A stretch of 64,000 nt of DNA from Escherichia virus TH47, in the sequence record MT446416.1; one strand, given 5' to 3'. The position numbers and the translations under genes are program-made. The notes under the pieces were generated by a model. It saw nothing but the letters and a program-made list of their open reading frames with translations. It was not told where the DNA came from and did no database searches. Below are positions 48,715 through 51,253 of the stretch, one piece after another. The number at the start of each line of letters is the position of its first letter. Position 1 is the stretch's first letter.

Positions 48715-49509
48715 TTAAATTACATACGGTTTATAGTAATGAATCTCGTTTGCGATTGCAGTGAAGACTTTATTATTAAATCTTTCACCATAATCACGAA
48801 GTGATTCACCTTCTTCGCTTTCAATGAAGTAATTATATACTGGTAGACGTGCGTTGTCAACACCTATAAATGATTTCATGTAAATTTGTACTAAACGATT
48901 CATTCCTTCATTTAAGCATTGCACCTCAAAGTGCTTGATACCTTTGTCTAAATGTTTGAATGCATTAATGATACCACGTTTAAAATCACGCTGCATAGTA
49001 CTGAATAAATTCTCAGGGAACACGGTAATAGGTGACATTGATTTAAGAATGTATGTATCTTTGGCATTCTTAATGTACTCAATAAAGCAGTAGTTAACGT
49101 CCGGCTCAATTGAACGATCCGCGTTATGATACCAGTGTTTAAACTCACTGTACTCAGCAAACTTATGCTGGCGTAATGCGTTACAATCCTCACACAGTGC
49201 AGTTATGTTCTCTTTATCATTACCGCCCTGGAGACAGTCCAGTACATTATGGTCTAACGTCATGCGTACAAGGCGTTTACCTTTAAGTACATAAGGTCTG
49301 AATTTATAACGGTCTTTAGTACTGTGCTTATGTAAAGTGAATACCACATTGGATTCACCACAACAATCACATTTAAAGCCATCACGTGACATTACATGAA
49401 TGAGTTTTCGAGTATTTGGGCCGAACTCAGATTTAGTAATGTTGCCGACAATTTCTGATGGGTCGTAGTATTTTGAATTCCGGCGAATCAATTCATCTAT
49501 AGTGCTCAT
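48715..49509 (-). CDS. HNH endonuclease-domain protein (264 aa)
   Basis: CDCCGESN...DHNVLDCLQGGNDKENITALCEDCN HNH core. Confidence 0.7.
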   Translation of the reverse strand: MSTIDELIRRNSKYYDPSEIVGNITKSEFGPNTRKLIHVMSRDGFKCDCCGESNVVFTLHKHSTKDRYKFRPYVLKGKRLVRMTLDHNVLDCLQGGNDKENITALCEDCNALRQHKFAEYSEFKHWYHNADRSIEPDVNYCFIEYIKNAKDTYILKSMSPITVFPENLFSTMQRDFKRGIINAFKHLDKGIKHFEVQCLNEGMNRLVQIYMKSFIGVDNARLPVYNYFIESEEGESLRDYGERFNNKVFTAIANEIHYYKPYVI

Positions 49510-49949
49510 TTTACATTAATCCTTCTATGCTACAACCAATAAGTACTTTTTTCACTTCAATAACTCGTACCAAATAGAATCCATTTGAAAAGTTAAAACT
49601 ATACATTTGTACTAAGGCATCTGCTTCAGATTTCGCACGGATACATGATAGATATAGTTCTCGTATATCGCCATCCAACGATGCTTGTTTCTCGTCATTG
49701 ATAACAATAGAACGAATCTCAAAACGAACACCATAACTCATTCTGTTTGTCCAACAATTAGTTTTTCTTTAGTATTACTATTGTAACACCACATTAATTC
49801 TTCACCAACTGTTCTAAGTGAAACGCTGTTTACTTGTTCATACGTACTGTCACGTACTGCAATGCATTGATTCATTGAATTCATTGGGGTGATTTGTACA
49901 CCAGATTGTGGTGAAAGAGCAATAATTAAAAAGATTACTGAATTCATTA

Positions 49950-50552
49950 GATATTCCTCAATGGTTAATCATCCATCTCTTCGAGATGTCTGTTCGCTTC
50001 TAATACTACGTATTCTACGCGAATGAATCATAACTGTCAAGGACTTTTAATATTGACGGGATTTGTTGAGGACTTTTTCATCCCCCGCAGGGGAATGATG
50101 GTAAGAAAAAAGAGACAATTAAGTCTCTTCTTGACGCTGATGGCATCGGATTTTATTGTATCGTGAATTTAGGACGGATCTATATTGTAATAAATCAATC
50201 GCAAACGGAAGCGGGTTGCTCTGTTTCTCCCTATCACGGTCATATGCAACGGTCACTGGTCTTTTCATCCCAGCACTCACTTAAAACTCCATACAATCGA
50301 AGTTCAAGCTGTCTTATAATAAGACTCCCTTAGCAAATCTGGTAAGGTGCGATCCTTATATGTCTATCGAGGAACTCTCGGTATGCTTATCGGAGTTCTT
50401 TATACAGCCGCATTGCCGTGAGGGGTTCAAACTATGCCCACATCTAACGGGTTTCTTTTGCTGTTCGTTCTGTAGCACAACTCATCTGCCCTCTACATTT
50501 TCGAGTGGTTCAGGATTATTTTATTCTAAATGAGCTACAGGTTTTTTTTATT
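49950..50552. other. GC-elevated ORF-free island (candidate structured RNA or decayed element)
   Basis: no ORF of 60 aa or more in any frame; visibly higher GC than flanks; several hairpins; promoter TTGACA-N17-TAGAAT at its minus-strand 3' edge. Confidence 0.3.
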
Positions 50553-51197
50553 CTAAATTTTACTTAATGACAAAGTAATACGTCCATTAAGTAAATCATC
50601 GTTTAAAACATCAATTCTACGTTGTAAACCTTTTATTACACCATCTGACACACTATTATTATATTTTTTAATAATATCAGAAAGATGTTCTTTTTTGGCT
50701 AATTGCCATTTTGCATGAGCTTCTTCAGGTGTGGGAAATGCACCCAAATGATATTTTTTCTTATTTTTGTAAATTTGTGCATAATATGGATTTTTGTATT
50801 CAAAACTCATATTTTTTTTAGGTATATGATAACAAACACCAAGTGGTTGATTTTTATTATTTTTGTCAATGATACACATGTTTATTTCATTTGGTACAAA
50901 TGAACACGTTTCAGGAGAATACATTTTTTTATTACCGTCGATTAAATCTTTATCTAATTCATAACCATCTTTGTAATTTGATATATACCATTCTTTAAAT
51001 TTAGAGTATGTTTTCCATTCATCACATATAATAACTCCTATATATGTTTTATGAGTTTCTTGATACTTTTCAGAATAACATCGTTTTATCATATCTTTCC
51101 ATGTATAATAAACTTTACTATAAACACTTTTTTTTGTGGAATCACCTTTAACATCATTGATTCCAAAACCATATACCAATTTCATATTAAATTCCAA
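50553..51197 (-). CDS. putative freestanding homing-endonuclease-like protein
   Basis: N-terminal YGFGINDV...YYTWKDMIKRCYS...ICDEW resembles N-terminal domains of phage HNH-type endonucleases (memory only). Confidence 0.4.
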   Translation of the reverse strand: MEFNMKLVYGFGINDVKGDSTKKSVYSKVYYTWKDMIKRCYSEKYQETHKTYIGVIICDEWKTYSKFKEWYISNYKDGYELDKDLIDGNKKMYSPETCSFVPNEINMCIIDKNNKNQPLGVCYHIPKKNMSFEYKNPYYAQIYKNKKKYHLGAFPTPEEAHAKWQLAKKEHLSDIIKKYNNSVSDGVIKGLQRRIDVLNDDLLNGRITLSLSKI

Positions 51198-51253
51198 TTA
51201 TGGTTATCATACTAACATTGTATCACACTTTCTAAATTTGTCCCATAAAAAAA

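Follow-up and report, generated by a model that had tools for sequence, protein, structure and literature searches.

Large, intricate RNAs without an assigned function are rare, and those that have been solved revealed ribozymes, riboswitches or RNA-only cages. Here we examine a candidate of this kind in a 64,000-nucleotide (nt) stretch of Escherichia virus TH47 (record MT446416.1; the whole stretch is called the window below). At 49948-50552 the window holds an island devoid of long open reading frames (ORFs), which a preliminary description had suggested might be a structured noncoding RNA, an intron-like remnant associated with the adjacent endonuclease-like gene, or a decayed acquired gene. 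On balance, we read the island as a stand-alone structured RNA gene on the minus strand, belonging to a family dispersed through jumbo-phage genomes. In kind it resembles the GOLLD and ROOL RNAs, which likewise are several hundred nt long, have many covarying helices and pseudoknots, are phage-linked and ORF-free, and have no function assigned; a recent study reportedly showed that both form RNA-only assemblies (bioRxiv 10.1101/2024.12.08.627333). The present family differs from them in having no Rfam match at any threshold, in being known only from lytic jumbo phages that infect Gram-negative bacteria, for the most part enterobacteria, and in having three to five diverged paralogs in a genome, which occupy fixed, spaced loci and each have a predicted promoter of their own.

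The pRNA of phage phi29, a structured RNA of about 174 nt, takes part in DNA packaging as a multimer; the packaging motors of T4-like phages require no RNA. The element shares with pRNA the character of a phage-encoded structured RNA, and several related RNAs per genome could in principle assemble similarly, but the size and architecture of pRNA are different. RNA II of ColE1 is about 555 nt long and depends on its fold, and T4 has several origins, with middle-type promoters at oriF and oriG. The element, too, would be a promoter-driven RNA of ~0.5 kb; it occurs in several spaced copies, its promoter is of a middle-like class, and a G-run lies close to its 3' end. Its core, however, is conserved far above known primer RNAs. 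A parallel for the gene beside the element is T4 segB in the tRNA cluster, an optional HNH-family ORF next to a conserved RNA gene, which one phage has and its close relatives lack. The ORF in the window differs in matching only the C-terminal half of an endonuclease family, with no nuclease motif detected, and the parallel concerns the neighbor, not the RNA.

The Pseudomonas jumbo phage PA5oct, a distant relative of the 121Q/RaK2 group, has four putative long noncoding RNAs (lncRNAs), which are ORF-free transcribed regions of 236-619 nt, and two of them account for 2-5% of phage reads (Lood et al. 2020, PMC7318152). This is the sole experimental evidence of abundant long noncoding RNAs in the clade. 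A hidden Markov model (HMM) of the present family, run with nhmmer (E below 1e-3) against a 15-kb PA5oct stretch containing ncRNA001 and ncRNA002, found no match there (ncRNA003 and ncRNA004 lay outside the comparison). These two RNAs also differ from the family in being unlike each other by eye, so they make up no repeat family. PA5oct ncRNA002 contains short strings that recall blocks of the family (AAGCGGG, TATGTATCTATGC, and AAACGGTC with a hairpin), in another order and without nhmmer homology. By the Rfam and nhmmer comparisons the element thus appears to be a new family, akin in kind to GOLLD, ROOL and the PA5oct lncRNAs and a member of none of them. Its multiple paralogs per genome, at fixed, spaced loci on the same strand, are unusual.

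A dispersed family with a covarying fold

A blastn comparison of the island uncovered a multi-copy family that the preliminary description had not foreseen. A core of ~480 nt occurs at four to five places per genome in 69-70 jumbo-phage records, mostly in unannotated DNA; the window holds a single copy. The phages concerned infect Escherichia, Klebsiella, Salmonella, Cronobacter, Erwinia, Yersinia, Serratia, Pectobacterium and Xanthomonas. A scan with a 22-base gapped motif gave 32 loci in IMG/VR, 31 in metagenomes and two in a set of bacterial genomes with one genome per species. (Looser patterns for IMG/VR, a 14-mer and a 16-base gapped motif, gave mostly chance matches; only the 22-base pattern was specific.) The family HMM confirmed 56 distinct full-length copies with nhmmer, all in IMG/VR or metagenome contigs, and neither of the two motif matches in the bacterial genomes. 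Complete contigs bearing copies are of jumbo-phage size, about 350-380 kb. The family is thus found only in RaK2/121Q-like jumbo phages and in matching metagenome contigs.

The paralogs are old: each type has syntenic orthologs across genera (for instance, the copy between the baseplate-hub and endonuclease VII genes is found in 121Q, UE-S1 and fENko-Kae01). The three copies mapped in 121Q, at about 91, 193 and 327 kb of 348.5 kb, are all on one DNA strand, and the five of fHe-Yen9-04, at 24.5, 93.3, 174.2, 260.4 and 334.7 kb of 354.4 kb, again share one strand. For Asteriusvirus genomes blastn indicates a fourth place, which is unmapped. Within one genome the five copies are followed by unrelated genes, so the repeated unit is the RNA with its promoter; a conserved cassette of RNA plus gene is thereby ruled out.

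The copies also appear to exchange sequence. The flanks in the window are 95-97% identical to those of Asteriusvirus jumbo coliphages (WPEC5, Ecwhy_1, fEgEco12 and the 121Q/PBECO4 group), yet the window copy is closer to the baseplate/endonuclease VII paralog of UE-S1 (86%) than to the 121Q/WPEC5 copy at its own locus, which indicates recombination or gene conversion between copies. Two very different alleles exist at the window locus, one in the window and ph0011 and the other in WPEC5 and 121Q. The central ~230 nt of the former resemble the paralog near endonuclease VII, and the flanks of WPEC5 are 97% identical to those of the window despite the different allele between them.

In an alignment of 34 copies, which we call A2, invariant blocks (TGACG, GCGGGT, AACGGTC, CTCCCTT, ATGTCTATC, GCCGCATTGCCGTG and TAACGGGT) stand between stems that differ in sequence and retain complementarity. 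RNAalifold predicted 47 pairs, 23 of them with compensatory changes. A curated helix model has 80 pairs in 17 helices, of which 92.6% of cells are paired, compared with 36-45% when the 3' partner is slid by one to three columns; that contrast is somewhat inflated, because the model was partly read off the same sequences. The double changes are independent of this. Both sides are altered in 51 of the 80 pairs, a value reached by none of 500 shuffles (mean 40.9), and the covariation score is 0.382 against 0.143 in shuffles, again with 0 of 500 reaching it. Variation in the element preserves at least 15 helices around invariant junction sequences, and some 80 invariant nt are common to the ancient paralogs.

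In P10 alone, each of the seven stem pairs has been altered on both sides, and a single position may have as many as five pair types; the versions of this helix include GAACTC/GAGTTC, GCATGA/TCATGC, GAAGTAC/GTACTTC and TGCGT/ACGCA, among others. Covarying pairs number four in H3 (of which the copies have at least five sequence versions), three in H5, four in H6, seven in H7 and seven of eight in P13; P11a is 100% paired, with three covarying pairs, and P11b is invariant. The stem of the predicted terminator covaries as well (AGAGAC/GTCTCT, GACCC/GGATC, GTACC/GGTAC, GTACAC/GTGTAC). H3, P11a and P13 are long-range pairings that span 90-150 nt, and H3 crosses H7 in the manner of a pseudoknot. H1 and H2, which would link the 5' and 3' halves, have no double-sided change and are kept as unverified helices. 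An all-against-all search of column pairs and a whole-sequence stem finder proved too noisy, since shuffled sequences scored equally, and resemblances noticed by eye to a hammerhead-like CUGANGA, a T-loop, a kink-turn and an anti-Shine-Dalgarno sequence were dropped, as the copies do not conserve them.

In large RNAs, peripheral modules often shift position, and the element has one that does so. This is a hairpin whose loop, GGACGGATCTATATTGTA(ATAAATCAATCGCA), is nearly identical among copies and which has two possible places, according to the paralog: 50166-50205 in the window, and mid-element in other copies (L019, about 2050-2100; L040; L037; L046). A 32-nt stretch is 100% identical between the window and the Yersinia-phage copy L037, at different positions. 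Three related motifs at 50053-50065, 50131-50143 and 50172-50183 read TTGACGGGATTTG, TTGACGCTGATGG and GGACGGATCTAT; common to them is GACG followed by GAT, and their shared minus-strand form is ATCnCGTCA. The three could serve as a protein-binding site in repeated form or as alternative partners in pairing.

Of the explanations offered in the preliminary description, a structured noncoding RNA is thus strongly supported, by covariation over 34-56 copies. The compensatory changes are well above controls and no reading frame is conserved, as expected of a structured noncoding RNA in general. The interval 49948-50552 is bounded by ORFs that end at 49947 and 50553 and contains no ORF of 60 or more amino acids on either strand; the statement that there was none in any frame holds at that cut-off and fails below it, the largest being of 57, 56 and 53 amino acids. 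The 57-residue ORF begins at the invariant ATG of ATGTCTATC and runs for 3-57 codons across 52 copies, with three codons in about half. Indels among copies are not multiples of three. The longest ORFs not being conserved, a pseudogene or a small protein is rejected.

The two hairpins quoted in that description, CATCCCC-CGCA-GGGGAATGATG (50079-50100) and AGAGAC-AATTAA-GTCTCT (50112-50129), are both present and are conserved or covarying portions of the repeated element. The visibly higher G+C content is also borne out (0.42 for the island, 0.35 for the whole window), and the increase is genuine though modest: the element (50053-50548) has 0.419 against 0.352 for the 64 kb and ranks in the top 2.9% of 500-nt windows, and a 300-nt core (50200-50499) has 0.457 and ranks in the top 0.8%, with 0.45 at 50200-50400. 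The conserved element fills ~50053-50549, or ~500 nt, whereas the first ~100 nt (49948-50052) are the predicted promoter and 5' untranslated region of the next leftward gene and lie outside the repeat.

Searches for known RNAs were negative. Rfam 15 (cmscan) gave no match at gathering thresholds in the whole window and none inside the element at E up to 10 in the window copy or E up to 1 in six other copies, so the covariance-model scan that had been suggested as a check identified nothing in it. RNase P RNA, 6S, SRP, OLE, GOLLD, ROOL, raiA and the other Rfam 15 families are all among the models without a match, and ARAGORN found no tRNA or tmRNA. The papers on 121Q, PBECO4, RaK2, GAP32, CBB, Sharanji and fEgEco12 do not mention the element. 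It looks, then, like a new family of large structured phage RNA of which we found no description. Some records annotate its copies in other ways. Those of WPEC5 (positions 2516-2961 in the extracted stretch) and others have "hypothetical protein" coding sequences of ~40 amino acids on both strands inside the element, the UE-S1 record marks part of it as a repeat_region, and the G17 and Munch records mark a terminator there. The short coding sequences are probably spurious.

A predicted minus-strand transcription unit

The likely RNA strand, which the preliminary description did not foresee, is the minus strand, the same as that of the endonuclease-like gene. In 49 of the 49 other copies examined, an extended -10 box, TGnTATAAT, lies on that strand 20-60 nt before P13 and reads into the element, and in all 49 it is preceded by a TGAAACG or TGGGACA box. 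This promoter is conserved also in copies whose flanking genes face the opposite way. (In about two thirds of copies both flanking ORFs are on the element's minus strand.) The motif is the "second promoter type" described for phages CBB and GAP32, and in CBB the TGAAACG...TATA class is mostly upstream of DNA-synthesis genes (PMC5259590). Within the window TGnTATAAT occurs 21 times on the minus (gene) strand and four times on the plus strand, and the full TGRRAC-N14-19-TGnTAYRAT motif is found at 51245-51217 and at 39374-39346, both on the minus strand. The motif looks like a general early/middle promoter class of the phage, to judge by these occurrences. At the other end, a hairpin followed by U7-8 comes after motif m2 on the minus strand in most copies, by our reading.

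Read on the minus strand, the domains run from P13, which encloses P12, through the P11 domain with its two invariant blocks, P10, the invariant GAUAGACAU, H8, UAAGGGAG, H7 (whose loop pairs with H3), H6, H5, the movable module and m2 to the terminator hairpin with its U-run, and then to Pa and S1. The RNA would be read leftward in the coordinates of the window, beginning in the relatives a few nt upstream of P13, and would end at the hairpin and U-run of 50129-50105, with possible read-through into the Pa/S1 tail. That tail may be either a portion of a longer RNA isoform or a DNA-level site. In the present phage the RNA would be the 3' part of the transcript of an inserted ORF or would arise from a weak internal promoter. 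Its own predicted promoter of sigma-70 type, the compact invariant core, the variable peripheral hairpins and the lack of a conserved neighbor together fit a trans-acting RNA best, and such an RNA might be made early or in mid-infection. The invariant core would then be a specific binding or catalytic site, and the paralog-specific peripheral hairpins and the movable module could tune each copy.

Base pairing bears on the strand as well, since wobbles that are G.U on one strand are A.C on the other, and here the evidence is mixed. Counted helix by helix with a strand-neutral stem finder, in plus orientation, G.U and A.C cells number 18 and 75 in Pa, 12 and 74 in H7, 8 and 14 in P13 (several independent C.A events in otherwise perfect helices) and 7 and 15 in H8, all of which favor the minus strand. 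The plus strand is favored by P10 (51 and 0, nearly all from one invariant flanking G.U) and by P11c (54 and 18; on either strand the commonest variant has a wobble and a mismatch, one of each). In the first model the plus orientation had 191 G.U against 57 A.C cells, an excess that stems largely from invariant positions, register errors or the one-sided helices H1 and H2. These totals, at first read as a call for the plus strand, were set aside because they depend on the helix and partly on alignment register.

Thermodynamics favors the minus strand only slightly. The mean folding z-score over 12 copies is -2.6 on the minus strand and -1.9 on the plus strand; alifold gives -122.0 and -114.5 kcal/mol, respectively. 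For Pa of the window copy the energy is -13.2 (minus) versus -10.7 kcal/mol (plus) and for H7 -5.7 versus -0.2 kcal/mol, and H7 with its extension folds well only on the minus strand. It is mainly because of the conserved promoter and terminator motifs that we call the RNA likely to be minus-sense.

Several points weigh against a simple minus-strand RNA gene. About 40% of copies are without an internal terminator, which makes the 3' end uncertain, and in some paralogs a hairpin and U-run come directly after the promoter, which is awkward for a unit running from promoter to RNA. Over 71 curated pairs, H1 and H2 left aside, 91.9% are canonical on the plus strand (wobble included) against 88.2% on the minus strand. 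H2 (GATAG/CTATC) varies only by A-to-G changes, which are paired only on the plus strand, and one P10 lineage and one long P11c variant have plus-sense wobbles. Finally, transcription, RNA ends and strand are all inferred.

The ends of the unit have further features in some paralogs. Several (L019, about 2376-2410; L148; L134; L055; L133) have a GC-rich hairpin between promoter and RNA body, to which U6-7 is added in some; a protective 5' stem-loop, a terminator belonging to the upstream gene and an attenuator are all conceivable roles. At the other end, many copies outside Asteriusvirus (L055, L138-L142, L147, L127, L143, L144, L152) have a further conserved stretch about 60-130 nt beyond S1. 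On the minus strand it consists of GAATTGAGTT, a hairpin and then AACGAAAATTCTTGAC(T/A)AACGGAGTTAGGCAATG, and it reaches the start codon of unrelated genes, whose Shine-Dalgarno sequence apparently lies within a hairpin.

Other readings of the element

Could each copy mark a replication origin? The structured RNA would then act in cis, forming a persistent RNA-DNA hybrid that primes the leading strand. This is the main rival reading, though we hold it unlikely. The copies are spaced roughly evenly around the genome on a single strand, five of them in fHe-Yen9-04 and three in 121Q, and the smallest gap (44 kb, in fHe-Yen9-04) has by our own calculation a P of ~0.02 as the minimum among five random points on a circle. 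The number of copies is similar to that of the several origins of T4, an invariant G-run and a C-rich hairpin lie near the RNA 3' end, and a promoter-driven transcript is predicted, as a motif match, in the 49 other copies; the association of this promoter class with DNA-synthesis genes in CBB (PMC5259590) points the same way. The positions are syntenic across genera, however, so that spacing and orientation are essentially one evolutionary observation, and placement on one strand is equally expected of early or middle genes, as in T4. Moreover, ~80 invariant nt and pseudoknots exceed the conservation of known primer RNAs, and the cumulative GC skew of the window has no turning point at the element.

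An RNA of the opposite sense, antisense to the flanking genes, would start after a TATACT/TAATAT box just upstream of the invariant TGACG (about 50053) and end with P13 and the T-run at 50542-50549. In every copy a -10-like box stands ahead of TGACG, P13 of the window copy is followed by a T8 run, and the pairing evidence given above that leans to the plus strand belongs here: H1 and H2 varying only by changes kept as G.U, the invariant G.U beside P10 and in P11c, and the totals of the first model and of the canonical pairs. Against this, H1 and H2 are without double-sided change and may not be real helices, invariant G.U positions say nothing of the strand, and A.C mismatches recur in Pa, H7, P13 and H8. 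The plus strand has no conserved -35 box or extended -10, the T-run is missing after P13 in most copies, and it is the opposite strand that has the conserved promoter and terminator. A plus-strand RNA is accordingly doubtful.

Less probable again is a cis-regulatory leader, in which the structured domain and the terminator would control read-through into the next minus-strand gene in the manner of a very large riboswitch or T-box leader. The layout of promoter, structured domain of ~430 nt, hairpin with U-run and gene is what such an attenuator would have, and several paralogs have no evident promoter before the next start codon and have a conserved leader (…AATTCTTGACTAACGGAGTTAGGCAATG) there instead. 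The copy between the baseplate-hub and endonuclease VII genes, however, is followed by no gene on that strand; the five copies of one genome precede unrelated genes; the next gene in the window has a strong separate promoter at 50040-50012; and the terminator is missing from many copies.

It is very improbable that the repeat works at the level of DNA, its conserved blocks being protein-binding or recombination/packaging signals (for example the thrice-repeated ATCnCGTCAG) and the RNA incidental. S1, m2 and the loop of the movable hairpin do share GACG/CGTC, the copies are evenly spaced on one strand, and the exchange of alleles shows that they recombine. But sites in duplex DNA leave unexplained seventeen covarying helices, some with strands 90-150 nt apart and some crossing, and a dedicated promoter that reads into every copy. 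An intron remnant, an RNA associated with a homing endonuclease and a decayed protein gene are effectively refuted. In their favor stand the HNH-family ORF directly beside the element in this phage and the second HNH gene at 48715-49509. On the other side, Rfam offers no match, its intron and HEARO models included; all loci examined have the element between genes, with no host gene interrupted; the ORF lies outside the folded core, and neither the relatives at this locus nor any other copy (two to four further loci per genome) has it; no reading frame is conserved; and variation tracks base-pairing, not codons. (An IscB omega-RNA is also excluded, as the neighbor has 214 amino acids without a Pfam RuvC or HNH domain and other copies are without such a neighbor.)

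The inserted ORF and the layout of the locus

The features of the window copy, read leftward on the minus strand, are collected in Table 1. The P14 hairpin of other copies is absent from it.

Table 1. Features at and around the window copy, with coordinates in the 64-kb window; promoters, terminators and RNA extent are predictions
Feature	Position	Strand	Details
Terminator of sigma-factor gene	51276-51251	-	
Promoter	51217-51245	-	TGGGACAAATTTAGAAAGTGTGATACAAT; -35-like TGGGAC 51245-51240, extended -10 TGATACAAT 51225-51217; precedes element in other copies, here upstream of inserted ORF
Inserted ORF, 214 amino acids	50553-51197	-	
Weaker promoter-like site	50557-50586	-	TGGACG-18-TAAAAT, 9/12 matches; within 3' end of inserted ORF
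Structured RNA body, about 445 nt	50105-50549	-	From A-run/P13 to terminator U-run; family HMM (nhmmer) E 1e-108
P13	50470-50540	-	CTGTAGC 50470-50476 / GCTACAG 50534-50540; encloses CTCATCT block 50481-50487 and P12
P12 hairpin	inside P13	-	GCCCTC 50488-50493 / GAGTGG 50503-50508
Central (P11) domain	50404-50464	-	P11a 50404-08/50460-64; P11b 50416-19/50447-50; P11c 50423-27/50435-39
Invariant blocks	in P11 domain	-	GCCGCATTGCCGTG 50407-50420; TAACGGGT 50445-50452
Invariant block and P10	50360-50400	-	ATGTCTATC 50360-50368; P10 50370-50378/50392-50400
H8		-	TAAGG 50343-47 / CCTTA 50354-58
Small hairpin and invariant CTCCCTT	50311-50331	-	Hairpin 50311-50325 (site of GGACGGATCTATATTGTA module in other copies); CTCCCTT 50325-50331
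H7		-	50281-88/50301-08
H6		-	50256-59/50270-73
H5		-	50215-19/50246-50
H4 with conserved-loop hairpin module	50166-50205	-	Loop 50172-50189
H3		-	50157-61/50291-95; pairs with H7 loop, pseudoknot-type
Motif m2	50131-50143	-	CCATCAGCGTCAA on minus strand
Probable intrinsic terminator		-	Stem 50112-17/50124-29, U-run 50111-50105; -11.7 kcal/mol, z -3.8
Conserved 3' tail	50053-50100	-	Hairpin Pa 50079-50100 (invariant minus-strand G-run); motif S1 50053-50065 (invariant CGTCA)
Separate sigma-70-type promoter for gene 49947-49738	50012-50040	-	TTGACA-17-TAGAAT, 11/12 matches; outside repeat

At the same locus in ph0011, WPEC5 and 121Q the island is present, the 645-nt gene beside it is absent, and the island abuts the region downstream of the sigma-factor gene; other copies of the element are also without the ORF. 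Because the element occurs without it at this locus in relatives and at two to four other loci per genome, the ORF is most simply a secondary insertion between promoter and RNA that is unique to this phage. With the ORF in place, the promoter-like site at its 3' end could start the RNA just upstream of P13.

Is the product an endonuclease, as the preliminary description implied? It matches PHROG 953 "HNH endonuclease" (E 3.5e-74) over profile positions 194-403 of 420, that is, the C-terminal half, and it has no match in Pfam (HNH included) or the PDB and no meaningful one in NCBIfam, with no nuclease domain detectable. The label therefore appears to apply only insofar as the protein shares the noncatalytic half of that family. 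Its closest relatives, about 53% identical, are at other loci in other jumbo phages. In the manner of a free-standing HNH homing endonuclease gene, the ORF occurs sporadically among close relatives at an otherwise conserved site; the HNH catalytic domain of such an enzyme was not detected. Three genes downstream from the element, at 48715-49509 on the minus strand, there is a second HNH endonuclease gene, of full length (PHROG 35175, E 3e-149; weak Pfam HNH_5), whose position is conserved in relatives.

Compared with ph0011 at the same locus, P13 has been altered on both strands and yet still pairs (CTGTAGC/GCTACAG versus CTGCTGAA/TTCAACAG), and this re-matching suggests continued selection on the RNA since the insertion. 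The P13 strand that was re-made, GAGCTACAGG, is flanked by the two copies of a 13-nt direct repeat, TTTTATTCTAAAT (about 50519-50531 and 50546-50558), perhaps a scar left by insertion or recombination.

The combination of ~0.5 kb, at least 15 covarying helices, ~80 invariant nt and ancient paralogs makes the element a good target for structure probing and cryo-electron microscopy. It is carried by jumbo coliphages and by Klebsiella, Salmonella and Erwinia phages under development for therapy or biocontrol, and their genome records leave it blank or overlay it with spurious "hypothetical protein" calls. The locus also offers a case of a conserved RNA gene as landing site for an ORF of an endonuclease family. 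The spaced, single-strand layout of the copies makes the start of replication in T4-like genomes of 350 kb directly testable. A new functional class of large pseudoknotted phage RNA would be a long shot: the five evenly spaced genes on one strand might be replication origins fired through a structure-dependent primer RNA, or the paralogs might form a hetero-oligomeric RNA machine. If the former were true, a mechanism like that of ColE1 RNA II would operate at multiple origins in a T4-related virus of 350 kb.

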